Part shown: in pieces, positions 5,899 through 22,070 of the stretch
Numbering within the stretch: the first letter of the stretch is position 1
How the letters are laid out: each line of letters starts with the position of its first letter
NCBI GenBank assembly: GCA_034189905.1
Contig: JAXHTY010000022.1
Location: 53,795-77,794, forward strand
Direction: 5' to 3'
Length of the DNA: 24,000 nucleotides
From: Thermodesulfobacteriota bacterium
GTDB lineage: Bacteria > Desulfobacterota > Desulfobacteria > Desulfobacterales > Desulfosudaceae
Position numbers and translations under genes: made by a program
The notes under the pieces: model-generated
Seen by the model: the letters and a program-made list of their open reading frames with translations, nothing else
Told to the model about the DNA's origin: nothing
Database searches by the model: none

Positions 5899-8180
5899 GG
5901 AAGAAAAGACCATTGCATTCAAAAGCACCAATAGCCGCGCTGACCGCTATAATCATAATCGGTATTCTGGTCTATGCCAACACCTTCCATTCCCCTTTTC
6001 TTTTTGACGATAAGCCCAATATTTCAGAAAATCCGCATATCCGGATGACGGATTTATCCTTCTCAGAGATCATGGATGCAACGAGAAGTGTCTCCGGTTA
6101 CCGGCCCCTGCCCAACATCTCTTTTGCCTTCAACTATTATTTCCACCAGTACGACACATTCGGATATCACACCATCAACCTGGCCATTCATTTGGCAACA
6201 GCCTTCCTTCTCTTTCTTGTCGCCAGGCAAACCCTGCAACAACTGAACCAGGAAAGCGCGCTGCTACCCCTGTTGGCCGCCATTCTATGGCTGGTCAACC
6301 CGGTCCACACCCAGTCGGTCACGTATATTGTGCAGCGCATGACATCAATGGCCGCCATGTTCTACCTGTTGTCCCTGTTTCTCTACATAAAGGCCCGGAC
6401 AAACCGGATGAAACAGTCCCGCATGTCCACCGGTATAATAATATTGCTTGTCATGTCTGTCGTGTCGGGGCTATGCGCCTTGGCGTCCAAACAGATCGCC
6501 GCCACTCTGCCGGTATTTATCTTTCTCTATGAATGGTATTTTTTCAGGGATCTCAATATCACCTGGCTCAAGCGCCAGATCAAATGGATCTTCATCCTTT
6601 CCATGGCAATTGTCGTCATCGCCCTGATCTATCTCGGCAAAAGCCCGCTCGAAAAAATCCTTTCCATGTATGACAAGCAAGACTTCTCCATGGGTCAGCG
6701 ACTGCTCAGTGAACCCCGTGTCATTATGCACTATTTGTCACTGCTGTTTTTTCCTCACCCCACCCGGCTTATCATCGACTATGACCTCATTGCCTCCACA
6801 GCATTGCTGAGGCCGGCCACCACGGCCCTTTCGATTGCCGCGCTATCAGGGTTGGTATTCACGGCTTTTGCCACAGCAAAGCGATACCGGCTGTTATCCT
6901 TCGCCATTCTCTGGTTTCTGGGCAACCTCGCCATTGAGTCTTCTTTTATCGGTCTTGCGCTTGTCTTTGAACACCGCACCTACCTGCCGTCAACCTTCCT
7001 GTTTATTGCCATCGTGCCAATAATCACCTACCGTATTCCCCTGCGCGCCATTACCATAGCGCTTTTCTGCTGTCTGATTGCTGTTGGTGGCTACTGGACC
7101 TGGCAACGAAACTACGACTGGAGAGACGCCGTATCCTTCTGGCTGGATTGTACAGAAAAAAGGCCGGATACGGCCCGGGCGTTTAACAATCTTGGCATTG
7201 CTTACAGGAGCACAAATGAATTCAAAAAGGCGCTGCCCGCGTTTCAGACCGCTATTGAAAAAGATCCGACTTTTGAAAGAGCTTACAACAATCTTGGCAT
7301 AATCCTTCGGGATGCCGGGGAAGCCCAATCCGCCATTCCCTATTTTACAAAGGCCTTGGAAATCAACCCCGCATATGCTGATGCCCATTATAACCTGGGG
7401 CTTGCTTTTTATGACAAGGGCATGATTGAAAAAGCGGCAACAGCCTTTCAGACTGCTATCAGGCTGAACCCACTTTATTCGAGAGCTCACAACAACATGG
7501 GCATTATCCGGCAATATCAGGGAAAAACAGAAGAGGCGATGGCTTATTTCCGCAAAGCACTGGATACAAACCCTTATTTTGACAAAGCATACAATAACCT
7601 TGGTATCTCCTTTTACCGAAAAGGAGAGATTGACAAATCAATTCAATGCTTTCAAAAATCACTGGCCATCCACCCGGCATACAGTGATGCCCGAAATAAT
7701 CTGGCCAAAGCAAAAAAACAAGAGGCCCGATACAGTCCGGTAATAAATGAGTTGACCGAGAAGCTGCGGCGATCTCCCGAAAACGATGCCATCGCCTTCA
7801 AACTGGGGCAGGTTTATGAAGAAGCCGGCATGCTGGACGGCGCCATTGACCAATACCGGCAAACCCTGGCAATACAGCCGGACCATGCCGCCTGCCTGTA
7901 CAGACTGGGGAATTTATATGTAAAAACCCGTCAACTTGAAAAAGCCATCGGGCCGATGACGAAACTGACCCGGGTACTGCCGGGAAACCCGGCAGTATTT
8001 TACAACCTTGCCTGCCTTCATGCCAAGCTGGCCGAAAAAGAACAGGCGATTCGGTATTTAAAAACAGCCGTGTCTAAAGGATTTGACAAATGGGATGCGC
8101 TTAAAACGGACAAAGACCTTGAAAATATAAGAAACTCCGAATATTATAGGGATTTGATGAAAAAAATCGGAGAAAATTGA
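5895..8180 (+). CDS. Paralog 3 of 6: GT-C (TMTC-like) membrane domain with about 8 TPR units and the C-terminal cap (761 aa)
   Basis: Track ORF. The ATG at 5895 overlaps the stop of paralog 2 (ATGA). AAGGA lies 9 nt upstream. Motifs: FLFDD, GYRPLPNISFAFNYYFH, NPVHTQSVTYIVQRMTSMAAMFY, FEHRTYLPS. Cap: FYNLACLHAKLAEKEQAIRYLKTAVSKGFDKWDALKTDKDLENIRNSEYY. Confidence 0.9.
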   Translation: MRKKRPLHSKAPIAALTAIIIIGILVYANTFHSPFLFDDKPNISENPHIRMTDLSFSEIMDATRSVSGYRPLPNISFAFNYYFHQYDTFGYHTINLAIHLATAFLLFLVARQTLQQLNQESALLPLLAAILWLVNPVHTQSVTYIVQRMTSMAAMFYLLSLFLYIKARTNRMKQSRMSTGIIILLVMSVVSGLCALASKQIAATLPVFIFLYEWYFFRDLNITWLKRQIKWIFILSMAIVVIALIYLGKSPLEKILSMYDKQDFSMGQRLLSEPRVIMHYLSLLFFPHPTRLIIDYDLIASTALLRPATTALSIAALSGLVFTAFATAKRYRLLSFAILWFLGNLAIESSFIGLALVFEHRTYLPSTFLFIAIVPIITYRIPLRAITIALFCCLIAVGGYWTWQRNYDWRDAVSFWLDCTEKRPDTARAFNNLGIAYRSTNEFKKALPAFQTAIEKDPTFERAYNNLGIILRDAGEAQSAIPYFTKALEINPAYADAHYNLGLAFYDKGMIEKAATAFQTAIRLNPLYSRAHNNMGIIRQYQGKTEEAMAYFRKALDTNPYFDKAYNNLGISFYRKGEIDKSIQCFQKSLAIHPAYSDARNNLAKAKKQEARYSPVINELTEKLRRSPENDAIAFKLGQVYEEAGMLDGAIDQYRQTLAIQPDHAACLYRLGNLYVKTRQLEKAIGPMTKLTRVLPGNPAVFYNLACLHAKLAEKEQAIRYLKTAVSKGFDKWDALKTDKDLENIRNSEYYRDLMKKIGEN

Positions 8181-8229
8181 ACCCGATCCGGCACAAACCG
8201 CAAAAGACAGGAAATAAGCAGAACAGACA

Positions 8230-10611
8230 ATGCCTGAAAACAAAATATTCTCATCCACCCGAGTGCCGTTGTTATGCACAATAGCAATCATTGTCTTGAC
8301 GGGCATCCTGATTTACTCAAATACCTTTGGCGTCCCTTTTGTTTTCGACGATGTGCCGAATATAATCGACAACCCCCATATCCGGATGACCGCCTTAACA
8401 CCGGAACAGCTTGCCGACGCTGTTCAAGGACCTGCAGGCCACCGGCCACTTGCCTACCTTTCCTTTGCATTCAACTACTTTTTCCATGAATATCATGTAT
8501 TCGGGTATCATCTGATAAACCTGATCATTCATCTGATCACCGGGCTGCTGGTTTTTTTAACAGCCCGGCAGACCCTGCGCCTCACAGGCACTGATAATCG
8601 TTTCATTCCGGTATTGGCCGCCGTTCTCTGGCTGGTCAGCCCGGTCCACACCCAGGCCGTCACCTACATTGTTCAACGAATGACGGCCATGGCCACCATG
8701 TTTTATCTGCTGGCCCTGTTCCTTTACATCAAGGCACGGATTATTCAAACCAATACCAAGATGCAGACAAAACGTGCGGCACTCTTCTTTGTTGCAAGCT
8801 TATTGTCCTGGATCTGCGCACTTGGCGCCAAAGAGATCGCCGCGACACTCCCTGTATTTGTTTTTCTATATGAATGGTTCTTTTTTCAGAATTTAGACAC
8901 AGATTGGCTGAGAAGACAGACTGTTTGGATTCTGGGACTCTGTGTGGTTGTGACATTCATTGCTTTTTACTACCTGGGCACCACCCCACTGGAAAGGATC
9001 CTGAAAGTTTATAACTACAGAGATTTCACGCTGGTACAGCGCCTTCTCACAGAGCCCAGAATAGTACTTTATTATCTCTCGCTCCTGGCATTCCCTCATC
9101 CGGGCCGCCTGAACCTGAATTATTATATCAGCGTATCAACATCGCTCATTAACCCCGTTACGACTCTGTTTTCAATCCTCGCCTTGATCGCTTTTTTTGC
9201 TGTTGCCATTATATCGGCCAAAAAAAATCGCCTGCTCTCCTTTGCAATCCTCTGGTACCTGGGTAATCTGGTGATCGAATCCTCCTTTATCGGCCTTGAA
9301 CTCATTTTTGAACACCGCGCATACCTGCCTTCAATCTTTGTGTTTATTGCCACTACCGCCCTGCTGACATCCCGGGACAAAAGGGCTTCTGCCGTAACAC
9401 TACTGTGTGCGCTTATTATTATTTCAGGATTCTGGACATACCAGCGCAACAAAACATGGGCCGATAAAATTTCGTTATGGGGAGACGCTTCAGCAAAAGC
9501 ATCCAGAAATCCAAGGCCGCATAACAACCTGGGTATGGCATTGCAAAAAAAAGGCCTGTATAAACTGGCAATGGAGAAGTACAAAAAAGCCATTTCCGTT
9601 GATCCGACTTATGAAAATGCATACAACAACATGGGGTTTGCCTTGCTTGAAAACGGCTCCCCCGATGAGGCCATTCCTTATTTAATAACCGCCCTGAAGA
9701 TCAGACCCACTTTCAAGGACGCCCACAACAATATTGCGGTAGCTTATCATCGAACCGGTAATACGGAGAAGGCCATTGCACACTGCAAAACGGGCCTTGC
9801 CATTGATCCTGATTTTACCAAAATCAGAAACACGCTTGGTGTCATCTATCTTGGGCAATCGAAACTAAAACAGGCCGCAGACTGTTTTACCACCGTCCTG
9901 AAATCACAACCCGGCTTATTTGAAACCAATATGAACATGGGATTAATCCGACAGAGAGAAAACCGTCCCCAAAAAGCTGCCGATTTTTTCGAAACCGCTG
10001 TTGCCCTGAATCCCAATAGTGTCGAAGCCCATTATCATCTTGGCAGTGTACTTGCCATGTCAGGCGACCTCATCGATGCCCGGCACCATATTGAAGTGGC
10101 GCTCAAGATCAAACCGGACTATCCACAGGCACATAACGCCCTTGGCAATATTCTCTTGAAGCAGGGCGAGATCGATAAGGCAATCACATATTACCAAAAG
10201 GCCCTGCAATATGCGACCGTCTATGCTTCTGCCAGCATCAACCTTGCCAACGCCCTGAGTATGAAGAGGGAATACAATGCGGCCATCGCCAGTCTTAATG
10301 AAGCCCTTCCCCAGGCCCCGGAAAACCCGTCCCTGCTGAGCAAACTCGGCATGCTCTACTCAAAAACAGAGAAATACGATGAGGCAATTGACGTGTTTAA
10401 GACACTGGGCACTGTTCTTCCCGGAAATGCAACCGTTTTCTATAATATTGCCTGTCTTTATGCAAAACAGAACAACACAGAAAAAGCTGTGGAGAACCTG
10501 AAAAAAGCCATTGAAAAAGGTTACGCCAGTATGGAAAGGATAAAAACAGACCCGGATCTCGAAGCCATACGGAATACCGACTATTACAAACAATTGACAT
10601 CACAACGATAG
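8230..10611 (+). CDS. Paralog 4 of 6: GT-C (TMTC-like) membrane domain with a TPR domain and cap (793 aa)
   Basis: Track ORF. Motifs: FVFDD, GHRPLAYLSFAFNYFFH, SPVHTQAVTYIVQRMTAMATMFY, AKEIAATLPV, YEWFFF, FEHRAYLPS. Cap: FYNIACLYAKQNNTEKAVENLKKAIEKGYASMERIKTDPDLEAIRNTDYY. Confidence 0.9.
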   Translation: MPENKIFSSTRVPLLCTIAIIVLTGILIYSNTFGVPFVFDDVPNIIDNPHIRMTALTPEQLADAVQGPAGHRPLAYLSFAFNYFFHEYHVFGYHLINLIIHLITGLLVFLTARQTLRLTGTDNRFIPVLAAVLWLVSPVHTQAVTYIVQRMTAMATMFYLLALFLYIKARIIQTNTKMQTKRAALFFVASLLSWICALGAKEIAATLPVFVFLYEWFFFQNLDTDWLRRQTVWILGLCVVVTFIAFYYLGTTPLERILKVYNYRDFTLVQRLLTEPRIVLYYLSLLAFPHPGRLNLNYYISVSTSLINPVTTLFSILALIAFFAVAIISAKKNRLLSFAILWYLGNLVIESSFIGLELIFEHRAYLPSIFVFIATTALLTSRDKRASAVTLLCALIIISGFWTYQRNKTWADKISLWGDASAKASRNPRPHNNLGMALQKKGLYKLAMEKYKKAISVDPTYENAYNNMGFALLENGSPDEAIPYLITALKIRPTFKDAHNNIAVAYHRTGNTEKAIAHCKTGLAIDPDFTKIRNTLGVIYLGQSKLKQAADCFTTVLKSQPGLFETNMNMGLIRQRENRPQKAADFFETAVALNPNSVEAHYHLGSVLAMSGDLIDARHHIEVALKIKPDYPQAHNALGNILLKQGEIDKAITYYQKALQYATVYASASINLANALSMKREYNAAIASLNEALPQAPENPSLLSKLGMLYSKTEKYDEAIDVFKTLGTVLPGNATVFYNIACLYAKQNNTEKAVENLKKAIEKGYASMERIKTDPDLEAIRNTDYYKQLTSQR

Positions 10612-10687
10612 CCGACATAATAGGCACAGGCATGACAGACCACTGGGACTCTCACGAACTCAACCTGGAACTTTACGGAAGCCACAG

Positions 10688-12991
10688 ATGAACGTAAGGA
10701 AAAGCCATTCCGCCCAATGGCAGATTTTTGTCATCTCCGGCGTTATTATCTTGCTGGGGACTCTGATCTATGCCAACACTTTTCATGTACCATTTATTTT
10801 CGATGATATCCACAATATTAAAGAGAACAGTCTTATCCGACTGACAACGATCACACCGGGAAAAATTCTTCAACTGAAAAACAGCCCTTGTCCGCATCGG
10901 CTCATAGCAAACTTTTCCTTTGCGTTAAATTACTTTTTTCATGATTATAACGTATTCGGGTATCACCTTATAAATCTGATCATCCACCTGATCACCGGTT
11001 TGCTGGTCTTTTTGACTGCCCGGCAGACCCTGCGCCTTACCGGTACCGATGACCGCTTTATTCCGGCATTGGCCGCCGTCCTCTGGCTGGTCAACCCTGT
11101 TCATACGCAGTCGGTCACATACATTGTTCAGCGGATGACAGCCATGGCCACCATGTTCTATCTGCTGGCCCTGTTCCTTTATATTAAGGCGCGGCTGATG
11201 CAGCACGATTTGCCGAAGAAAAAGGCTGCCCACATACTGCTGTTTGCCGGATGCGCCTTAGCCGGCCTGCTGGGGCTGGGCTCAAAAGAAATAGCCGCCA
11301 CGCTGCCGCTGTTTCTGTTTATTTATGAATGGTTTTTTTTTCAGGACCTGAATGGGCAGTGGGTGAAGCAACGACTTTTATGGATTGGCATTGCATGTCT
11401 GGCATTCTTGGCCATTGCCGCCGTCTACCTGGGAACCAGTCCGGTTGAAAAAATCCTGAAAGGTTATGGTCACAGAGACTTTACGCTAGGCCAACGCCTC
11501 CTCACAGAACCAAGGATCATACTTTACTATCTCTCGCTTCTTGTCTTCCCTCACCCGGACCGCCTGAACCTCAATTACGACATCAGTGTCTCCACATCCC
11601 TCATTGATCCTGCTACGACGCTGCTTTCAATTCTTACCCTATCCGGCCTTTTTGTCGTCACCATGGTTGCGGCCCCCAAAAACCGCTTGCTCGCTTTTGC
11701 AATCCTCTGGTTTTTGGGAAACCTGGTTATCGAATCCTCTTTTCTCAGCCTTGAACTCATTTTTGAACACCGTACCTACCTGCCTTCAATATTCATCATT
11801 ATTGTATTAACCACTGCCCTGCTGACATCCTCCCGCATCCGCAATACCGGCATTACAGCATTGTGCGTGACGATAGTTGTCTTCTGTTACTGGACGTATC
11901 AGCGCAATCAGGTTTGGGCCGATAAGGTTTCTCTGTGGAAAAACTGTTCAGACAAAGCGCCGGGGAGCCCAAGGCCATATATTAATATGGCTTCCGCACT
12001 GATGGAATCCGGGGATATGGCCCGGGCCAAAACGCTTTTTCAGAAAGCACTTCAACTCGACCCATCTAACGATGCAGCCCATAAGGAATATGGCCTGCTG
12101 CTCCTTGAAGAGGGTTTTACCGATCAAGCAATTGATCACTTTCGCAAAAGCATCGTCCTGAACCCACGGAATATTGCTGCTTATAATAATCTGGGATATG
12201 CCTTGCTTCGCAAGAACCAAACCCCAAAAGCGATTTCGGCGCTTGAAAAAGCCCGACATTTGAATCCTTACATCCCTGAAGTTCATTATAATCTTGCGAA
12301 AGCCTATCTGCAGAATGATCACACAACAACAACTTTTGACACAGCAGAAAAAGCTTTCCAGGAGGCCATTTCTCTCGATCCTCTCTATTACAAAGCATTT
12401 AACGATCTGGGCGCCTTATATCTTTTAACCGGACAAACAGACAAAGCTGTTCACGTTTTGAACGAGGCCATTCGCATCAATCCCGAGTATGCCCCGGCCC
12501 ATAAGAACATGGCTTTAACACTGAACCGTCAGGGGAACGCTTCCCAGGCACTCCATCATATACTTGAAGCTTGTCGTATTGCCCCGAACATCCCCGGTTT
12601 CCATATAACTGCCGGGGATATGCTGATGACACAGGGGAAAACGGAAGATGCCCAACATCATTACAGCAAAGCATTGTCTCTGGCCGGTGGGTCTCCCCGG
12701 CAAATTCTGCGTATCGGCAATCATTATGCCGGCGCAGGCCTGTATTCACAGGCAGTTCAAGCGTATCAAAAACTGGCCGCCTTAATGCCGGACAATCCCG
12801 CTGTTTTTTATAATCTTGCATGCCTGTATGCAAAACAAAAAAACCCGGAACAGACAATAGCCTATCTTGAAAAGGCCATCAATAATGGATATGATGATGT
12901 GGATCACCTGAAAACCGACAAGGACCTTGAGATTATCAGAAACACGGAATTCTACAAGAACATTCTACATAAATTGCAGGGTCGAAAATAA
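10688..12991 (+). CDS. Paralog 5 of 6: GT-C (TMTC-like) membrane domain with a TPR domain and cap (767 aa)
   Basis: Track ORF. GGAAG lies 6 nt upstream of the ATG. Motifs: FIFDD, PHRLIANFSFALNYFFH, NPVHTQSVTYIVQRMTAMATMFY, SKEIAATLPL, YEWFFF, FEHRTYLPS. Cap: FYNLACLYAKQKNPEQTIAYLEKAINNGYDDVDHLKTDKDLEIIRNTEFY. Confidence 0.9.
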   Translation: MNVRKSHSAQWQIFVISGVIILLGTLIYANTFHVPFIFDDIHNIKENSLIRLTTITPGKILQLKNSPCPHRLIANFSFALNYFFHDYNVFGYHLINLIIHLITGLLVFLTARQTLRLTGTDDRFIPALAAVLWLVNPVHTQSVTYIVQRMTAMATMFYLLALFLYIKARLMQHDLPKKKAAHILLFAGCALAGLLGLGSKEIAATLPLFLFIYEWFFFQDLNGQWVKQRLLWIGIACLAFLAIAAVYLGTSPVEKILKGYGHRDFTLGQRLLTEPRIILYYLSLLVFPHPDRLNLNYDISVSTSLIDPATTLLSILTLSGLFVVTMVAAPKNRLLAFAILWFLGNLVIESSFLSLELIFEHRTYLPSIFIIIVLTTALLTSSRIRNTGITALCVTIVVFCYWTYQRNQVWADKVSLWKNCSDKAPGSPRPYINMASALMESGDMARAKTLFQKALQLDPSNDAAHKEYGLLLLEEGFTDQAIDHFRKSIVLNPRNIAAYNNLGYALLRKNQTPKAISALEKARHLNPYIPEVHYNLAKAYLQNDHTTTTFDTAEKAFQEAISLDPLYYKAFNDLGALYLLTGQTDKAVHVLNEAIRINPEYAPAHKNMALTLNRQGNASQALHHILEACRIAPNIPGFHITAGDMLMTQGKTEDAQHHYSKALSLAGGSPRQILRIGNHYAGAGLYSQAVQAYQKLAALMPDNPAVFYNLACLYAKQKNPEQTIAYLEKAINNGYDDVDHLKTDKDLEIIRNTEFYKNILHKLQGRK

Positions 12992-12993
12992 AA

Positions 12994-15183
12994 ATGCAAA
13001 CGACAAAAACAGATAGCCACTGGCAAACACTTGCCGTACTTGCAGTAATGATTGCCCTCATCATTCTGATTTACGCCAACGCCCTTGACGCGCCCTTTGT
13101 TTTCGACGACATGCCGAATATAGTCGACAATCCTCATTTACGACTGACCGCCTTCACGCCGGAACGGCTTACCGGGGCAATAAAGGGGCCTTCCGGCAAT
13201 CGGCCCTTTGCATTTTTCTCCTTTGCCTTAAATTACTTCTTTCATGGTTATACTGTAAACGGATATCGCCTTGTAAATCTGATTATTCACCTGATAACCG
13301 GAATGCTGGTCTTTTTGACTGCCCGGCAGACCCTGTACCTCACAGGCACTGACAATCGTTTTATTCCTGTATTTGCTGCCGTTCTCTGGCTGTCAAGCCC
13401 CATTCACACCCAGTCGGTCACATACATTGTTCAGCGGATGACAGCCATGGCCACCATGTTTTACCTGCTGGCCATGTTCCTTTATATAAAAACACGGCTG
13501 GTACAGCGCGATTTTCCGGAAAAAAAGACTATCCCGATACTCTTGTTTACCGGATGTGCAGTGGCTGGGATTCTAGGGCTGGGTTCAAAGGAAATAGCCG
13601 CCACGCTACCGCTGTTTCTGCTGCTGTATGAATGGTTCTTTTTCCAGAATCTGAACGGGCAGTGGATGAAACAACGGCTTTTGTGGATTTGTATTGCATG
13701 CGTAGCCATTGTTGCCATTGCCGCCATTTACCTTGGCACAAGCCCGATTGAGAAAATACTTGGTATGTACGATAAGCAAGATTTTACCATGGGCCAACGC
13801 CTGCTCACCCAGCCGGGAGTCGTGCTCTACTATCTGTCCCTTTTGCTGTTCCCCCATCCCGGCCGCCTGAATCTGGATTACGATTTTCCGGTATCAACAC
13901 TTGTGAACCATCCGCTTACGACAGCCCTGACCATCCTTGCTATTGCCGGCCTCCTGATGGGCGCGATTTCCCTGGCCAAAAAACATCGACTCCTCTCATT
14001 TGCCATTCTGTGGTTTCTGGGCACCCTGGTTGTTGAATCATCGTTTTTGGGACTTGCCCTGGTGTTTGAACACCGCATCTACCTGCCTTCGGTATTTGTG
14101 CTGATTGCATTAACCGCTGCCCTGCTAACACCTTCACACTCCCGCCGCGTCGGTATTGCACTATTGTGCACCGCCACTGTTGTCTCTTGTTTCTGGACAT
14201 ACCAGCGAAACCGGATATGGACCGACAGTATTTCACTCTGGAAAGACTGTATCGCCAAAGCACCCGATAATGGACGACCGTACAACGGCCTGGGCGGGGC
14301 GTTTCAGGAAGCCGGGGACTATGAAAAAGCGCAGTTAAACTTTGAAAAAGCCATTCATCTCAACCCTGACGATTACAGGGTGAACAATAACCTGGGGGCC
14401 CTCCTGCTTGGCACCGGTAAACCAATGGACGCGATACCTTATTTTCAGAAAGCCCTGACAATCAACCCTGAATATCATGAGGCCTATTGCAACCTGGGCG
14501 TCGCGCTGGATCGGATAAACCAGCAAGAGGAAGCAATCCGGTCTTTTGAAAAAGCTTTGGCGATCTATCCCGATTATGCCGAGGCCCACAACAACCTCGG
14601 GTCCACTCTGCTGAATACCGGAAAGCCACAGGCGGCAATATTCCACTTTAAAAAAGCCGTCCGTATCAATCCTTTATATCCCGAAGCTTACAGCAACCTC
14701 GGCCTGGCCCTGATGAACCAGAAAAAGGTCGACCAGGCCATCGGATATTATCAAAAATCCCTGAAACTTTCACCGGAATCAGCCAACACCCATTTTAACC
14801 TCGGCTCGGCGTATTTCATGAAAGGCGACATTCCAAAAGCGATCCATCACCTGGAACAATCGGCTGCCATCAACCCCGCTTCCATTCTTGTGCTGAACAA
14901 CCTGTCCACCCTTTATACCATGGACAAGCAGTACGACAAGGCGATTGCAATACTGGACCAAATTGAAGCGCAACTGCCGGCGAACCCTACGGTCCACTAT
15001 AACAAGGCCTGTGTTTACTCGCTGGCCGGTCGTAAAGAGGCTGCTGTCACAAGCCTGGAAAACGCCATCCGCCTCGGCTATAATAAATGGCACCAGATAA
15101 GGACCGATTCCGACCTGGAAAACATACGGGATACAGCCTATTATAAAAAGCTTGAACAAGCAGTACTTTCTTCTTCGCCATAG
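12994..15183 (+). CDS. Paralog 6 of 6: GT-C (TMTC-like) membrane domain with a TPR domain and cap (729 aa); mosaic relative to the other paralogs
   Basis: Track ORF, starting 2 nt after the stop of paralog 5. Motifs: FVFDD, GNRPFAFFSFALNYFFH, SPIHTQSVTYIVQRMTAMATMFY, FEHRIYLPS. Cap: HYNKACVYSLAGRKEAAVTSLENAIRLGYNKWHQIRTDSDLENIRDTAYY. Confidence 0.9.
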   Translation: MQTTKTDSHWQTLAVLAVMIALIILIYANALDAPFVFDDMPNIVDNPHLRLTAFTPERLTGAIKGPSGNRPFAFFSFALNYFFHGYTVNGYRLVNLIIHLITGMLVFLTARQTLYLTGTDNRFIPVFAAVLWLSSPIHTQSVTYIVQRMTAMATMFYLLAMFLYIKTRLVQRDFPEKKTIPILLFTGCAVAGILGLGSKEIAATLPLFLLLYEWFFFQNLNGQWMKQRLLWICIACVAIVAIAAIYLGTSPIEKILGMYDKQDFTMGQRLLTQPGVVLYYLSLLLFPHPGRLNLDYDFPVSTLVNHPLTTALTILAIAGLLMGAISLAKKHRLLSFAILWFLGTLVVESSFLGLALVFEHRIYLPSVFVLIALTAALLTPSHSRRVGIALLCTATVVSCFWTYQRNRIWTDSISLWKDCIAKAPDNGRPYNGLGGAFQEAGDYEKAQLNFEKAIHLNPDDYRVNNNLGALLLGTGKPMDAIPYFQKALTINPEYHEAYCNLGVALDRINQQEEAIRSFEKALAIYPDYAEAHNNLGSTLLNTGKPQAAIFHFKKAVRINPLYPEAYSNLGLALMNQKKVDQAIGYYQKSLKLSPESANTHFNLGSAYFMKGDIPKAIHHLEQSAAINPASILVLNNLSTLYTMDKQYDKAIAILDQIEAQLPANPTVHYNKACVYSLAGRKEAAVTSLENAIRLGYNKWHQIRTDSDLENIRDTAYYKKLEQAVLSSSP

Positions 15184-15478: not shown

Positions 15479-15507
15479 TTGACAAAAAAACAGGATGTGG
15501 TAAAAAT
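15479..15507 (+). promoter_or_regulatory. Sigma70 promoter candidate upstream of the 15713 gene
   Basis: Consensus -35 TTGACA (15479-15484), a 16-17 nt spacer, then the A/T -10 TAAAAAT (15501-15507). A-tracts and T-tracts lie just upstream. The predicted start near 15513 gives a ~200-nt leader. Confidence 0.5.
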
Positions 15508-15591
15508 GATGGAACATAAACGCTGTTTACAGAGATGAAAGGGGGTGAGGCTTCCAAAATCTCATTTTTGTAATACACATATAGTGTATAT

Positions 15592-15682
15592 TTAGAGAAA
15601 AAGCCAAACCCCGGGCAACCGGGGGGCGGAAAGCCACGAATCCATAAGGACATTCCCTGTGGAGAGTCGGGCCGCCTCTGGG
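15592..15682 (+). promoter_or_regulatory. Structured 5' leader resembling a c-di-GMP-I (GEMM-I) riboswitch aptamer
   Basis: 15603-15635 reads GCCAAACC CCGG GCAA CCGG GGGGCGGAAAGCC. That is a CAAACC block, a 6-bp GC stem (15609-15614 / 15619-15624) capped by the GNRA tetraloop GCAA, then a CGGAAAGCC block. It has the same length and order as the Vc2 aptamer segment as I remember it (GGCAAACC AUUC GAAA GAGU GGGACGCAAAGCC). A second hairpin follows: CCACG/UGUGG (15634-15638 / 15658-15662) enclosing AAUCC-AUAA-GGAcAUU. An outer pairing is possible between UUUAGAG (15591-15597) and CUCUGGG (15676-15682). Not verified with a covariance model. Confidence 0.45.
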
Positions 15683-15712
15683 AAAAAACCTTAAACCTGG
15701 AGGGAGTAAAAG

Positions 15713-16237
15713 ATGAAAAAATTATTAGTAGCGTTAGTCGTAGGTGCATTAATGGTTCTGCCGATGTCTGCAATGGCTATGGATTCTATTTCAGATGCTG
15801 ATCTCGGCGGCATCACCGGTCAGGCCGGTGTTACCATCGCCTTTGGCGGCAATCAGACCACAGAAGTGACTTTTGACGCCGTATCCTGGGGCGATCCCGA
15901 TGGCATGGGTGGTGCTAACCAGACTGCCGGTTGGGTCATTTTTGACGGCACAATTGGCATCTCCGTAATCATCGCCGACGGTGAGATGCTGACCATTGAC
16001 GTTGCAACAGCTAATGGTGCTGCATACAGCGTTGGCAATGTTACTATTGCTGACGGCACGACCTTTGTCGCCATTGGCCTGCCCAGCCAGACCATCAATG
16101 TGGACACACCGTCTACGCTGGCCATTGGCCTTGGCACCAGCGCGGGTAGCATTGCCGGCACAATCGGTCTGCTGAACCTGGAAAACCTGAGTGTTTCCCC
16201 GGGTACGCCTGACGCGCTCTACATTTACGCACATTAA
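15713..16237 (+). CDS. Small secreted, extremely acidic Gly/Thr/Ala/Ile-rich protein (174 aa) with a Sec signal peptide followed by a double-glycine-leader-like motif; candidate major structural subunit
   Basis: Track ORF. A strong SD, GGAGGGAG (15699-15706), precedes the ATG. Signal peptide: MKKLLVALVVGALMVLPMSAMA | MDS. Motif ISDADLGGITGQ at nt 15788-15823. After the signal peptide there is no Lys, Arg or Cys, against 12 Asp and 3 Glu. Four N-x-S/T sequons are present (NQT, NQT, NVT, NLS). It shares VSWGDPDGMG and a C-terminal LYIYAH strand with the 16410 product (VYWGDADGFG, IYVYES). Confidence 0.9.
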   Translation: MKKLLVALVVGALMVLPMSAMAMDSISDADLGGITGQAGVTIAFGGNQTTEVTFDAVSWGDPDGMGGANQTAGWVIFDGTIGISVIIADGEMLTIDVATANGAAYSVGNVTIADGTTFVAIGLPSQTINVDTPSTLAIGLGTSAGSIAGTIGLLNLENLSVSPGTPDALYIYAH

Positions 16238-16280
16238 TTCAAGTTCTTAATGAATATTATGCGTAATTGCACAAAAATGT

Positions 16281-16318
16281 CCCCTGGAGTGGAATCTCCC
16301 CATTCCAGGGGATTTTTT
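16281..16318 (+). terminator. Rho-independent terminator after the 174-aa gene
   Basis: The stem CCCCTGGA (16281-16288) pairs with TCCAGGGG (16304-16311). It is followed by A and T6 (16312-16318). Confidence 0.8.
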
Positions 16319-16321
16319 CCC

Positions 16322-16350
16322 TTTACAGACCAGCATTTTTGTTGTATAGT
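16322..16350 (+). promoter_or_regulatory. Sigma70 promoter for the 16410 gene
   Basis: TTTACA (16322-16327), a 17-nt spacer, then TATAGT (16345-16350). It sits directly after the terminator and ~55 nt upstream of the ATG at 16410. Confidence 0.6.
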
Positions 16351-16409
16351 TAAATACATACAATAAAATGTGGCTATCAGGAGAGGACAGAAATGGAGAA
16401 CATATCAGC

Positions 16410-17408
16410 ATGAACACCAAGAAATGTTTTTCATCCAGCCTGCCTGCTCTTTTTCTCATTATTGTCGGATTATCAGTTCTATCTTCTGTTGTTCCCACCG
16501 CCCATGCTGTGACACTGCTTTCAGACAAAACCATTGCCCAGATTTACGGCGGTCAGCAGGTTATTATTGAAGTTGAAAACGGGTCAGCCGCTTTTTTTAC
16601 CATTGATGATGTTTACTGGGGTGATGCAGACGGCTTTGGCAATGCCACCAGCCCCGGCTATATCGATATTCAGGTCCCGTATAAAAATTTTCAATATGAC
16701 GCATTTCGATATCAGTTCAACACCAAGGAAGACGCCGATGCCTTCATTGAAGCTCTGGATGACCTGACCTATATGGATATAGAGGTCGAGGATACGGAAT
16801 TTTTCTACAAAGTCCCCAATGCCCAGGATATCGGCATAAACGATACCACTGGCAGAGAGATTGATTATGTAATTGTTACCACAGACAGATCGGTCCCTAG
16901 CAATATTATACAAAACCACAGAGGAACTGTCATCAGCCAGGAAATCCAATTTACCATTTCTTTCCCCGACGAAGAAGACCCATACCGGAAAACGTACGAA
17001 ACCGTCACCTATGACGCGGCCAATGATGAGTTTGTCTTCGATTCAGCAGACTACGGTCAGTTCATCACTGAAGTTCACAATACGGGCAATCAGCCCATTC
17101 GGGACAGTGAAGGCAACATAATTGTGCCGACAGACACAACTTACTTACAAGCTCGCACTGCCACGCTCCAAGTGGATAGCCCCATGATCGCCTTTTCCAT
17201 TGCTCTGATTCCGGAGGGTGATGTGCCCATTCCCGATAGATTCATGCAGAACCCCACCAGCACGCCGAGTCACTACCCTGATTTTGACGCTGCCAATGAC
17301 CCAGGAAGGCAACTGGGATACTTCGGCATTTCTGACCTCCAGGTGCGAATCGGCGGCGGAGAACCCATCTATGTCTACGAATCAGATATTGTCTATCCTT
17401 TTGAATAA
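16410..17408 (+). CDS. Secreted acidic protein (332 aa from the ATG at 16410) with a Sec signal peptide followed by a double-glycine-leader-like motif; larger paralog of the 15713 product
   Basis: The track ORF starts at 16368. I prefer 16410 (MNTKKCFSSSLPALFLIIVGLSVLSSVVPTAHA | VTL) because it gives a canonical n-h-c signal peptide and has GGAGA ~10 nt upstream. Motif LSDKTIAQIYGG at nt 16518-16553. D+E clearly outnumber K+R. The WGDADGFG block and the C-terminal PIYVYES strand are shared with the 174-aa protein. Confidence 0.85.
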   Translation: MNTKKCFSSSLPALFLIIVGLSVLSSVVPTAHAVTLLSDKTIAQIYGGQQVIIEVENGSAAFFTIDDVYWGDADGFGNATSPGYIDIQVPYKNFQYDAFRYQFNTKEDADAFIEALDDLTYMDIEVEDTEFFYKVPNAQDIGINDTTGREIDYVIVTTDRSVPSNIIQNHRGTVISQEIQFTISFPDEEDPYRKTYETVTYDAANDEFVFDSADYGQFITEVHNTGNQPIRDSEGNIIVPTDTTYLQARTATLQVDSPMIAFSIALIPEGDVPIPDRFMQNPTSTPSHYPDFDAANDPGRQLGYFGISDLQVRIGGGEPIYVYESDIVYPFE

Positions 17409-17749: not shown

Positions 17750-17760
17750 ATTTGGTTAAT

Positions 17761-17777
17761 AGTAAACAATGTTTACT
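17761..17777. promoter_or_regulatory. Perfect 8-bp inverted repeat AGTAAACA-a-TGTTTACT; operator-like site just downstream of the candidate -10
   Basis: AGTAAACA at 17761-17768, A at 17769, TGTTTACT at 17770-17777. It lies 12 nt after the -10 hexamer and 41 nt before the ATG at 17818. Confidence 0.35.
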
Positions 17778-17817
17778 GTTTGATATTGGGGGATCTAAAG
17801 GCAGGAGTCTTCATAAA

Positions 17818-18576
17818 ATGCATATATTGGTTGCTTTTGTTATCGCTGTTGCGCTCATCTCCGGATTTAAGCCTATCAAGGAAGTACCGGACAACGAAAT
17901 TCGAATCGCCGTCAATACCGATGGGGGGATTGTCCCCAACCTTCCGCCTGAAGTTGAAATTCGTCATGAAATAGGACCGGCGTCGGAAATCAACTTTAAA
18001 CATATTGTCACGCAGCAATTTGATTATAGCTGCGGCTCCGCAGCCCTGGCCACCATACTGCGATACCAGCTTGGGGAAAAATTCACTGAGACCCAGGTTA
18101 TTGCCGGCCTTTTCCGGTATGGCGACAAGGAACAGGTTGAAAAGAAGCGCGCGTTTTCACTGCTTGACATGAAGAAGTTCGTGGGCGTTCTGGGCTACAA
18201 CGGGGTGGGCTACCGGGCCGATATAGAAGACCTCAAAGATCTGAACATGCCATGCATTGTCCCCATCGAAGTGTTTGGTTACCGACATTTTACCGTTTTC
18301 AAGGACGTTTATAGAGGGCACGTCTTTCTTGCCGACCCGTATCGGGGGAATTCCAGTTATACCATCGATCAGTTCGAAAAAATATGGCACCAGAATGTTA
18401 TTTTTGTCGTGTATCCCAGAGGGGAAGAGCAGCTTTCACTGCTGGAATTATCCCATCGTGACCTTCGATTTATTGACGAGGCCATGGAATACGACATCCT
18501 CTTTAATGGTCAGCCGCCTTTGGACAGCCTGCCGCCGGAACCGGACACAGGCGGAAGACAGCGCTTCAGGTATTAA
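17818..18576 (+). CDS. Stand-alone C39-family (bacteriocin-processing type) cysteine peptidase with an N-terminal signal/anchor helix and no ABC-transporter domain (252 aa from 17818)
   Basis: The track ORF starts at 17752. I prefer the ATG at 17818 (AGGAG at 17803-17807, 10-nt spacer), which gives MHILVAFVIAVALISGF as an N-terminal hydrophobic helix. C39 signature blocks: QQFDYSCGSAALATIL (oxyanion Gln; Cys codon at 18031-18033), FSLLDMKKFVGVLGY, MPCIVPI, GYRHFTVF (His), VFLADPYRGN (Asp), FEKIWHQNVIFV. Confidence 0.85.
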   Translation: MHILVAFVIAVALISGFKPIKEVPDNEIRIAVNTDGGIVPNLPPEVEIRHEIGPASEINFKHIVTQQFDYSCGSAALATILRYQLGEKFTETQVIAGLFRYGDKEQVEKKRAFSLLDMKKFVGVLGYNGVGYRADIEDLKDLNMPCIVPIEVFGYRHFTVFKDVYRGHVFLADPYRGNSSYTIDQFEKIWHQNVIFVVYPRGEEQLSLLELSHRDLRFIDEAMEYDILFNGQPPLDSLPPEPDTGGRQRFRY

Positions 18577-18621: not shown

Positions 18622-20289
18622 TTGAATAGAAAAAATAAAACGATGACCGTATGCATGGCATTAACGCTTCTTCTCTGCCAACTTGCATTCGCAAACCAGC
18701 CCTCTCAAACAGGAGAAAGGCAGTTGATGACGGATATTTCTGTCGATGAACTGGCAACCATCATCGGCAGAGGATTTATTGCCAGCCTGAGCCCCGAGGA
18801 AATTGAAGAGATCAACGCCCGCGGCATCACCGCCCCCGATATTCTGGATATGAAAACTAAAGATCTCGCCCGTATCAGTGCCCGCGGTGTCACATATGTC
18901 TTTGATACATCCAAAGTCACCGATGAGGACCTTCAGGATATCGCCGGTCGCGGAACAGTCCAGGAAATCGGTCGCTCGCCTTACTCTGTACAGGTTGGAG
19001 TCTTTAAGGTAAAGGAGAATGCGCTTTCCCTGCTTAAGGAGCTGGAGGGGAAAGGGTATGAACCTTATATTTTCCAGACCATTGGCGATGCCGATGAAAA
19101 ACTGTTTGCAGTCCGGCTTGGCGACTATGAAGATGTAAAAGACGCCTACGCCGCGGTAACGCACTTCAAATCAAAAGAAAAAAAACCGGCTGTGGTCACC
19201 TATATCAACTCCCTGAAAACCGTTCAAAAAGCAGATCTTATGCAGGAGGAGGCCACCACGAGACTTTCTGATGAATTGTCCGCTGCGGACTTCGAAGATG
19301 AAAACCTGAACTCCCTTTACAGGGAATTAACCGCATTACGCAAAGAGGTGGATCAACTCAAGGCTGAAGCCGAAGCCCGTGAAAAGCTTCGCATGACAGA
19401 AGCCGAGGAGGAAAAAGAAGAGGAAGAAATCCTCTCTGCCGCCGGCAGGGAATACACCATGGCACAAAAAGGGACCCTGACCTTTGATTATTCATTTGGA
19501 TATACGTTTAACACTTATGAACAGGTCAGTGTGGCCTCCACAGCGACATCCGCAACCTCTTACCAGGTTGACCATGTCAACGGCCATACCCTGAGAAACA
19601 GCGTTGCCACGGGATACTCGCTGTTTGACAACCTCAAGGTAACCGCCTCTGTTCCGTTTGTGTACAAATATCAAAAACTGGGCCGTATCGGTTCCAAAGA
19701 TGTCAGTGACATCGGCGACATCTCGCTGGGCGCGAACTGGCAGCCAATCAAAGCCGGCGGAAACTTCCCCGCAACCATCCTTACAACCAATATCAACATA
19801 CCTACCGGGCGAAGTCCTTATGAAATCAATCCCGACGTTGACATTGCTACCGGTTCGGGGGTTTATTCCGCCACTGTGGGTTTTACCGCCAGCAAAACCA
19901 TTGATCCCATCGTGGCGTATGGCGGTATGGGATATACCCACTCCCTTGAAGAATCCGGCCTGAACCAGCAATTGTCTTCCGGCAACGTTCTTGACAGTGT
20001 TGAACCCAAGGGTGTTATCAGTACCAGCCTGGGCGTAGGCTATGCCATGTCCTACAAGGCCTCCATCTATACTAGCTTCTCTTATTCCTACCTGTTTGGC
20101 GCAACCTATAAATATGCGAATGGCAGTGATGCCTCCACCGGAAATTCAGCAACCGCCAGCCTAGTGGTGGGAACGGGCTGGAAAATATCGCCTGAGCGGA
20201 CTGTCAGCATAAACCTGGGCCTGGGGTTGACCAATGAGGCATCCGACTTTGCCTTCTCCTTCAGGCTCCCCTTTGATTTTGAGATGTAA
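18622..20289 (+). CDS. Outer-membrane protein with five parts: signal peptide, four motif repeats, a SPOR peptidoglycan-binding domain, an acidic coiled-coil linker, and a C-terminal beta-barrel of the MetA/phenol-degradation transporter type
   Basis: Track ORF with a TTG start at 18622, preceded by GGGAGG (18609-18614, 7-nt spacer). Signal peptide: MTVCMALTLLLCQLAFA | NQ. SPOR-like block: YSVQVGVFKVKENALSLLKELEGKGYEPYIFQ...LFAVRLGDYEDVKDAYAAV. Linker: LRKEVDQLKAEAEAREKLRMTEAEEEKEEEE. The last ~270 aa show alternating beta-strand patterns with the DIGDISLG, NIPTG and ATGSG motifs I associate with that barrel family, and end FSFRLPFDFEM. Confidence 0.85.
   Translation: MNRKNKTMTVCMALTLLLCQLAFANQPSQTGERQLMTDISVDELATIIGRGFIASLSPEEIEEINARGITAPDILDMKTKDLARISARGVTYVFDTSKVTDEDLQDIAGRGTVQEIGRSPYSVQVGVFKVKENALSLLKELEGKGYEPYIFQTIGDADEKLFAVRLGDYEDVKDAYAAVTHFKSKEKKPAVVTYINSLKTVQKADLMQEEATTRLSDELSAADFEDENLNSLYRELTALRKEVDQLKAEAEAREKLRMTEAEEEKEEEEILSAAGREYTMAQKGTLTFDYSFGYTFNTYEQVSVASTATSATSYQVDHVNGHTLRNSVATGYSLFDNLKVTASVPFVYKYQKLGRIGSKDVSDIGDISLGANWQPIKAGGNFPATILTTNINIPTGRSPYEINPDVDIATGSGVYSATVGFTASKTIDPIVAYGGMGYTHSLEESGLNQQLSSGNVLDSVEPKGVISTSLGVGYAMSYKASIYTSFSYSYLFGATYKYANGSDASTGNSATASLVVGTGWKISPERTVSINLGLGLTNEASDFAFSFRLPFDFEM
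18727..18957 (+). repeat. Four tandem protein-level repeats of an acidic-Leu/Ile-x-x-Ile-x-(Gly/Ala)-Arg-Gly motif in the periplasmic N-terminus of the SPOR barrel protein
   Basis: The four repeats are SVDELATIIGRG, SPEEIEEINARG, KTKDLARISARG and TDEDLQDIAGRG (aa 36-112). The R-G pairs are spaced 17, 21 and 22 residues apart. Compare TDKQLQDVQGG, SDKTIAQIYGG and SDADLGGITGQ in the three secreted proteins. Confidence 0.7.
18979..19206 (+). other. SPOR-like peptidoglycan-binding domain within the 18622 gene
   Basis: aa 120-195 follow the beta-alpha-beta-beta pattern YxVQVGxF...A...L...G....v......FAVRLGxY....A typical of SPOR domains. Confidence 0.6.
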
Positions 20290-20330: not shown

Positions 20331-22070
20331 ATGCGATTGAAAACGCAGACAAGAACAGCACCAATTCTTTTCATAACGGCAGTCGTGTTCCTTCTTTGCA
20401 TTAATGAGAACCGTCTGTGCCATGCCGCCTTTTTTGAAAACATTGCCGTCCATGCCAAGGCCATTTCACTGGCTAATTCATGTGTTGCCTATCCGCCCGG
20501 CCATATGGCAATCCATTACAATCCTGCCGGTCTTTCCAACCTGCATGCCGGTAAACAGCTCAGCCTGGGCCTGCTCACAGCGGATCTTTCCATTGAATCG
20601 AGCTTTAATGCAGATCCGGATTTTGACGGCTGGCTGGACACATTCAGTAATCAGGATGACCCCCTGGACGGCACGAACAGCAGCGTTGAAGGCTGGCATC
20701 TATATATGCCGATACTGGGCGAACAGGATACCGACATCATTGGTGTGGACACGCCCGCCGGGTTTCTTCCGGCTGCGCCGTTCCCGTTAGGATTGTCATA
20801 CCGGGAGCCAGGATCCCGATGGACATTCGGATTTGGTGCCTATGCCCCGACGGTTGGCGGTTATTACCGGTCGGATGCGGATCCCGGCCGCTATAACGGG
20901 CGGGCAGTATCAATGCAACAAATAACATACGCTGCGCCGTCTGTCAGTTACCAGCTCACAGACACACTATCGCTCGGCCTGACCGTCAGCTTAAGCCAGG
21001 GCGCCACTCAGATGGATCTGGATATGCGCATGCCCAACGACCTGATGGCTCTGACCAAAACACTTGGCGATGCAACAGAAGGATTGACCATTCCGATTGT
21101 CTCTCAGTTAACCCTTCCCGCCCCGTGGTTTGGCGGCGGCATCGGGCCGTATGAGGATTTTGCCAACCTGAACATCAAAAGCCGAGACGACTATTGTCCC
21201 GGATATAATATCGGCCTTTTATGGGAACCCAAAAACTGGTTTTCTTTTGGTGCCAATTATCAAAGCAAGGTCCGTATGGAACAGCAGGGTACATATAAAT
21301 TCAGTTATAATGAGAACTGGCAGCGTATGGTAAACTGGTTTGGCAGTTCCGTGCTGTTATTGCCCATTTCAGTCATGCTTGACCTTCCCTATAATGCAAC
21401 CCCCTATCAGGCCGGTAACGTTTATATGGATGGATTTGATGCGCCCCAGCGTGTCCAGATGGGGGTTATGCTCAGGCCCTTCAAGCGACTGCGACTGATG
21501 TGTGATGCCCACTGGATCGACTATTCTGAAACAAAAAAATGGACCATTCAATTCGATCAGAACATCCAGGTACTTCAACTGGCAAAACTGGTAGGACACG
21601 CAGACGGTTCCAACAGACTGACCTTGACCCGGGATATGGAAGATGAAATTCATATGAGTTACGGCGCAGAACTCCAGCTACTGGAGTGGCTCTTTTTGCG
21701 ATGCGGCTATGAAGACAGAAAAACATCTGTCAGCCGGCAATATTTCGATGTTATTGCACCCGTCCCGGATCTGGATTTTTACGGTGCCGGCTTAGGCATA
21801 AAACTTAAGAGCGGGGTTGAAATTGACCTGTCTGTGGGCTATCTTGAATCCGAAAGATGGTATGTACCCAATAACACCAGCGACAATCTGAATTCAACCG
21901 ATTTCACAGACGCGGTATACAATCCGTATGGCGGCCTTGATGTGTCCGGTGAAATGGATATTACAGTCGTTGCGGCCAATGTGAGTATGCCGTTTAAATA
22001 TATTTATCGCATCAGCAATATTCTCAAGGATTCATTGGAAAAAACAAAAGAACTCATTCCTTTCCATTAA
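20331..22070 (+). CDS. FadL/TodX/OmpP1-family outer-membrane channel homolog, enlarged (579 aa)
   Basis: Track ORF. AGGAG lies 5 nt upstream of the ATG. A signal peptide ends in CHA | AFFE. The N-terminal hatch-like block AKAISLANSCVAYPPGHMAIHYNPAGLSNL matches the family hallmark (G.A..A...d.....NPAGL). The remainder is rich in amphipathic beta strands with aromatic girdle residues. Confidence 0.8.
   Translation: MRLKTQTRTAPILFITAVVFLLCINENRLCHAAFFENIAVHAKAISLANSCVAYPPGHMAIHYNPAGLSNLHAGKQLSLGLLTADLSIESSFNADPDFDGWLDTFSNQDDPLDGTNSSVEGWHLYMPILGEQDTDIIGVDTPAGFLPAAPFPLGLSYREPGSRWTFGFGAYAPTVGGYYRSDADPGRYNGRAVSMQQITYAAPSVSYQLTDTLSLGLTVSLSQGATQMDLDMRMPNDLMALTKTLGDATEGLTIPIVSQLTLPAPWFGGGIGPYEDFANLNIKSRDDYCPGYNIGLLWEPKNWFSFGANYQSKVRMEQQGTYKFSYNENWQRMVNWFGSSVLLLPISVMLDLPYNATPYQAGNVYMDGFDAPQRVQMGVMLRPFKRLRLMCDAHWIDYSETKKWTIQFDQNIQVLQLAKLVGHADGSNRLTLTRDMEDEIHMSYGAELQLLEWLFLRCGYEDRKTSVSRQYFDVIAPVPDLDFYGAGLGIKLKSGVEIDLSVGYLESERWYVPNNTSDNLNSTDFTDAVYNPYGGLDVSGEMDITVVAANVSMPFKYIYRISNILKDSLEKTKELIPFH

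Follow-up and report, generated by a model that had tools for sequence, protein, structure and literature searches.

The leader of a gene for a small acidic protein (15713-16237, + strand) raises the question of whether a c-di-GMP-I (GEMM-I) riboswitch is present, as proposed by the original prediction from sequence features, and, if so, which ligand it senses and how it acts on the downstream gene. The gene lies in a 24-kb stretch of DNA from a Thermodesulfobacteriota metagenome-assembled genome (MAG), in the following referred to as the window. According to the reading favoured here, which is held to be very likely, a class I c-di-GMP aptamer resides in the ~200-nt 5' UTR of a FilA/DUF6160-like gene and operates as a translational ON switch.

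The regulated gene codes for a DUF6160/FilA-like secreted acidic protein of 174 aa (Pfam PF19657, E = 2.7e-9; NCBIfam pilus_FilA, E = 3.4e-9, below cut-off). It shows 100 % identity to a database entry of a Thermodesulfobacteriota MAG. Residues 1-22 form a signal peptide, and the mature protein of 152 aa (pI 4.05) contains 15 D+E but 0 K+R, in agreement with the small acidic product originally predicted. The NCBI annotation places the start at M23 and thereby loses the signal peptide; homologues keep the MKK start, with M1, K2, K3 and L4 retained in 27 of them. 3' of the gene, a strong intrinsic terminator (16279-16323, +; 14-bp stem and T-run) is followed by a promoter-like site (16322-16350), which suggests that the riboswitch controls mainly a monocistronic unit.

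Scanning of the whole window against 4227 Rfam families yielded a sole match at gathering threshold, i.e., a member of the c-di-GMP-I clan at 15594-15680 (+), with RF03167 as top model (60.3 bits, gathering 59; E = 3.7e-12). A second clan member also reached at least its own gathering score at this position, but is hidden by clan competition. With the E threshold raised to 10, nothing but noise was otherwise retrieved in 15560-15730. A covariance model (CM) built from five related aptamers (R1) scored the same segment with 104.9 bits.

The core at 15603-15635 (GCCAAACC-CCGG-GCAA-CCGG-GGGGCGGAAAGCC), already singled out in the original prediction, can be aligned gap-free with the c-di-GMP-I consensus GGCAAAcccgucGAAAgacgggGACGCAAAgCc. 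All elements of the aptamer are encoded on the + strand. P1 (15594-15597, AGAG, with 15676-15679, CUCU) is short, comprising 4 Watson-Crick pairs and up to 3 G·U pairs, and encloses two adjacent hairpins, P1a and P2, an arrangement backed by covariation. J1/2 (15598-15603) leads into a 2-bp helix (C15604:G15629, C15605:G15628), and the 6 bp of P1a (15609-15624; 15609-15614 with 15619-15624) are capped by a GCAA tetraloop of the GNRA type (15615-15618). The second hairpin, which had been placed at 15634-15662, exists but is longer than assumed, since P2 spans 15632-15673, including A·C (15632/15673) and A·G (15640/15664) mismatches. Within its 3' part, the C-GGG element recognized earlier at 15668-15671 forms part of UCGGGC (15667-15672), which aligns with CCggGc of the model.

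Based on the CM alignments, G15603 at the end of J1/2, A15630 and C15675 correspond to canonical G20, A47 and C92, the ligand-contacting residues of Vc2 (PMC4744006, PMC5888326). Likewise, C15627 in a 3-nt bulge 3' of P1a and G15666 in an AG bulge of P2 are the equivalents of C44 and G83, which form a universally conserved interhelical pair (PMC4744006); the tertiary pairing itself is putative in the present case. The bulge before G45 reads GGC, the usual form being GAC. On the minus strand, a terminator-like site (15624-15609) represents the reverse complement of P1a followed by that of the AAAAAG junction; it was rejected as a terminator, there being no minus-strand gene to terminate.

To place the aptamer among its relatives, 35 loci with homologous genes were collected and searched with R1 and a broader model (R2). 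R1 revealed ten homologous aptamers, all of them located just upstream of DUF6160/FilA-like genes. Six are canonical (window, L014a, L014b, L033 with its identical copy L034, L003 and L004), and four are variants that appear degenerate relative to the models: L006 carries U in place of C92, a UUCG loop and no GAC bulge, whereas L005, L013 and L028 share an irregular P1a without GNRA loop and a shortened P2. The closest orthologue, L014 (protein 71 % identical), possesses two tandem subunit genes with one aptamer each, that of L014b being nearly identical to the window aptamer. The aptamer of L033 scores 96.8 bits with R1 despite a protein identity of merely 50 %, which argues for purifying selection on the RNA.

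Base pairing is maintained across these relatives. In a MAFFT alignment of 5 sequences, 90.9 % of the cells are paired and 6 pairs are double-changed, a level matched by 2 of 500 shuffles; sliding of the 3' partners as a control on the same 5 sequences lowered pairing to 32-59 %. With all 10 sequences, in an alignment fitted to the model, 91.3 % are paired and 10 pairs double-changed (0/500 shuffles). Compensatory changes occur among the 10 aptamers in every long helix, i.e., P1, P1a and both segments of P2. The exchanges at 15604 (G to C) and 15629 (C to G), suspected in the original prediction to compensate each other, indeed constitute a swapped G:C pair, which is C:G in 9/10 related aptamers. 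None of the 10 aptamers deviates at the G20 or A47 equivalents, and 9 retain C92. For the 2-bp junction helix the canonical CM register was used, RNAalifold alone mis-registering it.

The expected conservation of the CAAACC block, GNRA-capped stem and AAAGCC block in orthologous leaders thus holds, with covariation, but in a patchy manner: next to the six canonical and four variant aptamers, 12 distinct orthologous leaders, including that of Desulfosudis oleivorans Hxd3, contain no aptamer detectable with R1 or R2 at filters off. Control is therefore dispensable for the gene family, and the riboswitch is recurrent rather than universal. Diverged aptamers in the latter leaders, suggested by a two-hairpin 'GGGAAAC' appearance by eye and by the minimum free energy (MFE) folds of L007, L010 and L027, were dropped: with R1/R2 at filters off, the best in-leader match (L010, 42-139) reached 9.3/11.3 bits (E = 0.73/0.35) and represents noise, and Rfam retrieved nothing in the aptamer-less leaders at E <= 0.5 and <= 0.1.

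Upstream of the aptamer, a sigma-70-like promoter (TTGACA, 17 nt, AAAAAT; 15479-15507, +; 10/12 matches) preceded by an A/T-rich tract predicts a transcription start near 15513-15515. Of 17 orthologous leaders, 15 carry TTGACA ahead of the AAAGGGGGTGA motif, at a distance of 53-62 nt or, in four loci, of 76-77 nt, the exceptions being L004, which has none, and L007, which is cut by the contig end. The conserved 5'-leader motif TAAACGCTGTTTAC...GATGAAAGGGGGTGAGG (GAAAGGGGGUGA motif; 15517-15550, +; consensus TAAACAnTGTTTACnnnnGnGAAAGGGGGTGAT, 17 distinct loci) combines a 5'-proximal hairpin/palindrome with an SD-like stretch showing complementarity to the 3' tail of 16S rRNA. It occurs in leaders that have the riboswitch as well as in those that do not, lies outside the aptamer, and may act in a stabiliser-like manner. 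Directly 5' of P1, a hairpin (AUACAC-AUAUA-GUGUAU; 15573-15589, +; -5.2 kcal/mol) possibly serves as a folding insulator; the same position is occupied by UACACA/UGUGUA in L014b and by AUGCACAA/UUGUGCAU in L033, the latter with A:U changed to G:C on both sides.

Downstream, the Shine-Dalgarno sequence GGAGGGAG (15699-15706, +; core GGAGG at 15699-15703) precedes the AUG by 9 nt, measured from G15703. The MFE and centroid folds of 15590-15725 (z = -2.6) contain P1a and P2 as well as an SD-sequestering hairpin (15675-15703, +), in which CCUCUGGG (15675-15682) and CCUGGAGG (15696-15703) pair over 8 bp around a 13-nt loop. Both competing pairings of the original prediction are recovered, AGAG (15594-15597) with CUCU (15676-15679) as proposed, and the strand CCUCU with the SD core as part of a wider helix. 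Since the 5' arm of the sequestor consists of the C92 equivalent and the P1 3' strand, it is incompatible with the closed, ligand-bound aptamer. The sequestor state folds with -43.9 to -45.2 kcal/mol, compared to -36.5 kcal/mol for the P1-closed state, the sequestor helix alone accounting for -10.7 kcal/mol, and the probability of the SD being unpaired is ~0.01 in the unconstrained ensemble. Tight binding of c-di-GMP could conceivably pay for this energy gap. When P1 is enforced, a weak 4-bp hairpin (15689-15692 with 15700-15703) is still partly able to cover the SD.

Equivalent sequestor helices are found in L014a/b, L033, L004, L005/L013 and L006. In L014a/b and L033, the P1 3' strand and the SD compete in identical fashion, and other sequences set up the same competition in L004 (CCUGUG:CACAGG), L006 (UCUCC:GGAGG) and L005/L013. 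L003 departs from this scheme, a GUGAUCAU/AUGAUCAC hairpin forming the platform 3' of its aptamer. No intrinsic terminator is present on the + strand between 15594 and 15713, i.e., from the aptamer to the AUG. Because the SD sequestor represents the MFE state, in support of the original switch proposal, because its logic recurs in relatives and because no terminator precedes the AUG, a translational ON switch with increased translation of the subunit at high c-di-GMP is most likely according to these folding models.

In the ligand-free state, C15675 and the P1 3' strand within CCUCUGGG would pair with CCUGGAGG and bury the Shine-Dalgarno sequence. Binding of c-di-GMP in the three-helix junction, with contacts to G15603, A15630 and C15675, would allow P1 (AGAG:CUCU) to close, thereby blocking the sequestor and freeing the ribosome-binding site. 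High c-di-GMP, i.e., the sessile/biofilm state, would thereby lead to synthesis of the acidic protein that forms the major subunit of a Fil/Fap-like system of surface fibres.

Blocked translation often exposes mRNA to Rho or RNases, and a real aptamer could therefore have its main output in Rho-dependent termination/transcript elongation or mRNA decay instead of SD occlusion. The differing platform of L003 and the stabiliser-like 5' motif conserved in the same leader would be in line with such an output. It is nevertheless regarded as unlikely to predominate, since 15594-15713 (+) contains no terminator-like site and the SD sequestor, besides being the MFE state, is built anew from other sequences in several lineages. 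As a secondary effect, Rho action or decay would be partly compatible with the SD-occlusion mechanism.

With SD occlusion retained as the preferred mechanism, the identity of the ligand has to be considered. The Fil/Fap-linked aptamers might represent a lineage on the border of RF01051 and RF03167 that diversifies its pocket and tertiary contacts, such that the window RNA would recognize not plain c-di-GMP but maybe another cyclic or linear dinucleotide. The altered residue 92, loop and bulge of L006 and the irregular P1a and shortened P2 of L005/L013/L028 point in this direction, and the GGC bulge and C:G-swapped junction pair may be invoked for the window itself. This reading is considered improbable.

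The original prediction had named RF01051 as the model to be searched; the clan is indeed as expected, but the best-scoring model is RF03167 (c-di-GMP-I-GGC), though the position that defines this variant is occupied by the canonical A in the window. The two Rfam consensus sequences, GACGCAAAgCc (RF01051) and GACGCGAAgCc (RF03167), differ in a single conserved base, at the Vc2-A47 position, and their consensus lines suggest that 'GGC' denotes G20/G47/C92. A literature search on RF03167 retrieved mentions of the family that carry no variant definition, a query for A47G found none, and a ligand of the GGC variant was not established from the literature searched. The window clears the gathering score of RF03167 by 1.3 bits only. 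Clan competition hides its individual RF01051 score, and the scores of orthologues are therefore placed beside it: 54.1 bits on RF01051 (gathering 35) and 50.4 on RF03167 (gathering 59) for the L014b aptamer (2618-2704), 49.6 and 50.0, respectively, for that of L014a (1266-1352), and 49.1 and 54.5 bits on RF01051 for L003 and L004.

True membership in RF03167, with an altered pocket and recognition of a ligand different from c-di-GMP, would agree with the top-scoring family (60.3 vs 59) and with the weaker relatives L005 and L013, which likewise score best on RF03167. It is, however, very unlikely, because A and not the variant's G occupies the A47 position in the window (A15630) and in all 10 related aptamers, and because the L014 aptamers stay below the gathering score of RF03167 yet pass that of RF01051. 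Considering that A47 is the sole conserved-base difference discerned between the consensus sequences, the pocket of the window aptamer may be regarded as canonical. That RF03167 scores slightly higher is probably due to backbone features in common rather than to the pocket. Both the simple P2 of the window and its AAAAAG junction suit this model well, in contrast to the conserved G of the model at the A47 position. On account of the canonical A and of the near-identical L014 aptamers passing RF01051, 15594-15680 is filed, judging from its sequence, as an ordinary GEMM-I aptamer of the GYRA-tetraloop type.

Sensing of 3',3'-cGAMP, or promiscuous recognition of cGAMP and c-di-GMP as by GEMM-Ib of Geobacter-type deltaproteobacteria, deserves mention since the host is represented by a Thermodesulfobacteriota MAG and Geobacter is known to possess GEMM-I variants that respond to cGAMP (PMC7266159, PMC8835794). 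Variants of this kind have a changed base at a ligand-contacting position (PMC9481103), and the G20A exchange confers binding of cGAMP (PMC7288161). The hallmark of GEMM-Ib is A at the G20 equivalent, whereas the specificity position is G in the window (G15603) as well as in all 10 relatives, and the gene context indicates a surface fibre, not extracellular electron transfer; a cGAMP sensor is thus highly improbable here. A decayed or chance GEMM-like sequence without regulatory function, as could be suspected from the many aptamer-less orthologous leaders and the degenerate L005/L013/L028 and L006, is practically negligible in view of the E value of 3.7e-12, the fully intact pocket residues, the compensatory changes and the high-scoring L033 aptamer (96.8 bits, R1) at 50 % protein identity. 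c-di-GMP is maintained as the probable ligand of the window aptamer.

The genes surrounding the regulated one resemble the Fil and Fap systems. NCBIfam models for FilA, FilB, FilC and FilD match in the expected order (E 3e-9 to 3e-98), although all scores are far below the curated cut-offs: FilA with 36.5 bits at 15713-16237 (cut-off 220), FilB, a C39 peptidase, with 188.9 bits at 17752-18576 (cut-off 475; FapD 128), FilC with 189 bits at 18622-20289 (cut-off 630; FapF 80.7), and FilD of the FadL family with 329.6 bits at 20331-22070 (cut-off 970). Six tandem membrane+TPR proteins are encoded upstream and a PD40 protein downstream, and the cluster includes a SPOR domain. The same cluster is present in D. 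oleivorans and in other MAGs. An AF2 model of the subunit (pLDDT 73) retrieved no significant PDB match. Taken by its sequence relationships, the locus is a putative distant Fil/Fap-like fibre secretion cluster, with the regulated product as putative surface-fibre subunit, the role assigned to FilA in Acinetobacter sp. Tol 5 (PMC11784438).

This context of FilA/B/C/D and FapD/FapF relatives is in keeping with the known targets of c-di-GMP-I, among them adhesins and fibres, and the setting, a surface/matrix gene, is typical for the class; the FilA/DUF6160-like nature of the subunit is consistent with the link to biofilm and surface behaviour drawn in the original prediction. In a limited literature search, no account of a Fil or Fap system controlled by a riboswitch was retrieved. 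The riboswitch may serve as a regulatory handle on an uncharacterised DUF6160/Fil-like cluster, predicting that the major subunit is made at high c-di-GMP. This prediction points to a biofilm/surface-fibre role in Desulfobacterota of the sulfate-reducer type and could guide expression experiments. The RNA as such is a further example of a well-known class with thousands of members, not a new kind of element. The added value is modest and resides in the link of c-di-GMP to a Fil/Fap-like system, in the variant aptamers and the 5'-leader motif, and in an annotation pitfall, namely that Rfam clan competition would label the RNA 'c-di-GMP-I-GGC' despite its canonical A47, a misleading automatic assignment.

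Among known systems, Vc2 of Vibrio cholerae (RF01051, PDB 3IRW) shares with the window RNA a P1 closing two hairpins, the 2-bp helix, AAA bulge and 6-bp P1a with GNRA loop, the G20, A47 and C92 equivalents, the C44:G83 pair (putative in the window) and the position in the 5' UTR of a surface/adhesion gene; orthologous copies of the window lineage, moreover, score 49-54 bits on RF01051. Differences concern G21:C46 of Vc2, which is swapped to C:G in the window lineage, the tetraloop (GAAA vs GCAA, with GYRA across the lineage), the bulge (GAC vs GGC) and P2, which is a long irregular hairpin in the window. The GYRA-loop form corresponds to the GEMM 'type 2' reported by Weinberg et al. (2007), which lacks the 11-nt GAAA receptor.

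Vc1 and Bc2 share with the window a class I aptamer upstream of an adhesin/matrix gene. Repression of cap by Bc2 reportedly involves a terminator, whereas the platform of the window is a simple SD sequestor sharing the P1 3' strand, for which the ON direction is a prediction. Vc1 is a c-di-GMP-I ON switch for gbpA (PMC4744006). Bc2, located upstream of cap, is likewise a c-di-GMP-I ON switch, with expression raised by c-di-GMP (PMC4933901) and the riboswitch described as repressing this downstream gene.

Compared to Fil of Acinetobacter (FilA-D) and Fap of Pseudomonas (FapD, FapF), the window cluster scores far below the family cut-offs and additionally contains the tandem membrane+TPR proteins, the SPOR domain and the PD40 protein. 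In gene order and content downstream of the riboswitch it resembles these systems, comprising a FilA-like protein, a FilB/FapD-like C39 peptidase, a FilC/FapF-like outer membrane protein and a FilD-like member of the FadL family.

The DUF6160/FilA-like subunit gene is assigned a start at position 15713, which has a strong Shine-Dalgarno (SD) sequence and agrees with the MKK N-terminus conserved in 27 homologues (15713-15778); the public annotation (MAG protein SWH61_14135, 152 aa) begins at M23 and leaves out the signal peptide. The mature subunit is devoid of lysine and arginine, and four N-x-S/T sequons are present in the protein. Based on these sequons, a part in fibre modification or assembly is conceivable for the products of six tandem paralogous ORFs (618-866 aa; 1463-15183) directly upstream of this riboswitch-controlled gene. 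Each carries C-terminal TPR repeats and an N-terminal region of ~400 aa, for which Pfam searches yielded no match in any of the six; that of the 729-aa paralogue appears hydrophobic and membrane-like by sequence. In D. oleivorans and other MAGs, 1-3 ORFs of this kind occupy the equivalent position.

On the 3' side of the terminator, a promoter-like site (16322-16350) precedes a 346-aa ORF (16368-17408), the similarity of which to the DUF6160 subunit is limited to the first ~50 mature residues (BLASTP E = 5e-5), with …SD..L..I.G…WGD.DG in common. Such a pattern would be expected of a minor or tip subunit with an N-terminal assembly module in common with the DUF6160 protein.

The closest orthologous contig (L014, 1161-3266) carries two DUF6160 genes in tandem. 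Each copy has its own promoter, 5' motif and GEMM-I aptamer as well as an identical SD sequestor; the duplication took in the entire regulatory cassette, beyond the coding sequence alone. Directly 5' of aptamer P1, the window contains a hairpin (AUACAC-AUAUA-GUGUAU; 15573-15589), which may serve as a folding insulator for the aptamer. Hairpins at the equivalent position are found in the second L014 cassette (L014b, UACACA/UGUGUA) and in the homologous locus L033 (AUGCACAA/UUGUGCAU), and among the three an A:U pair is replaced by G:C with both strands changed.

Two deviating forms of the aptamer were detected. Desulforapulum-type loci harbour a GEMM-I-like element (L005, 3872-3955; L013, 2371-2455; L028, 1371-1455) scoring a sub-threshold 26-30 bits with the Rfam models and 29-32 bits with R1, the model built from five aptamers. 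The ligand-contacting positions G20, A47 and C92 are all kept. P1a, a helix of 7 bp, contains a tandem A·A internal loop and ends in a hexaloop, P2 is reduced to a short hairpin, and the two elements that normally make the tetraloop-helix contact are jointly altered. Its recurrence across three loci suggests a maintained structural subtype rather than decay. A variant aptamer in a metagenomic orthologue (L006, 266-358), represented by one 1.1-kb contig, was recognized by R1 (37.3 bits, E = 2e-9) and had no Rfam match at gathering. It displays C92 changed to U, a UUCG loop instead of GNRA, no GAC bulge and a shortened J1/2, and retains the P1/SD-sequestor design (UCUCC:GGAGG); the specificity of its pocket may be altered.

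Nearly all DUF6160/FilA-like leaders share a common 5' beginning (window 15479-15550), whether or not a riboswitch is present (window, L001-L004, L006-L008, L010-L012, L014 (twice), L016-L024, L027, L030 and L033). Most open with an A/T tract and a TTGACA-N17/18-TAnnnT promoter, followed ~2-3 nt 3' of the predicted transcription start by TAAACAnTGTTTACnnnnGnGAAAGGGGGTGAT. The leader sequence GAAAGGGGGUGAU is complementary to the canonical 16S 3' tail AUCACCUCCUUUC over an uninterrupted stretch of 13 potential pairs, including a single G·U, and no start codon lies at a usable distance 3' of it. These features suggest a 5' mRNA stabiliser that binds ribosomes, together with a hairpin at the 5' terminus. 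Alternatively, the motif may represent a protein operator, since the substitutions that the hairpin has acquired do not restore pairing and AAACA..TGTTT is present as two copies at some loci. As a ribosome-binding 5' mRNA stabiliser, the leader motif would be comparable to the STAB-SD of cryIIIA.
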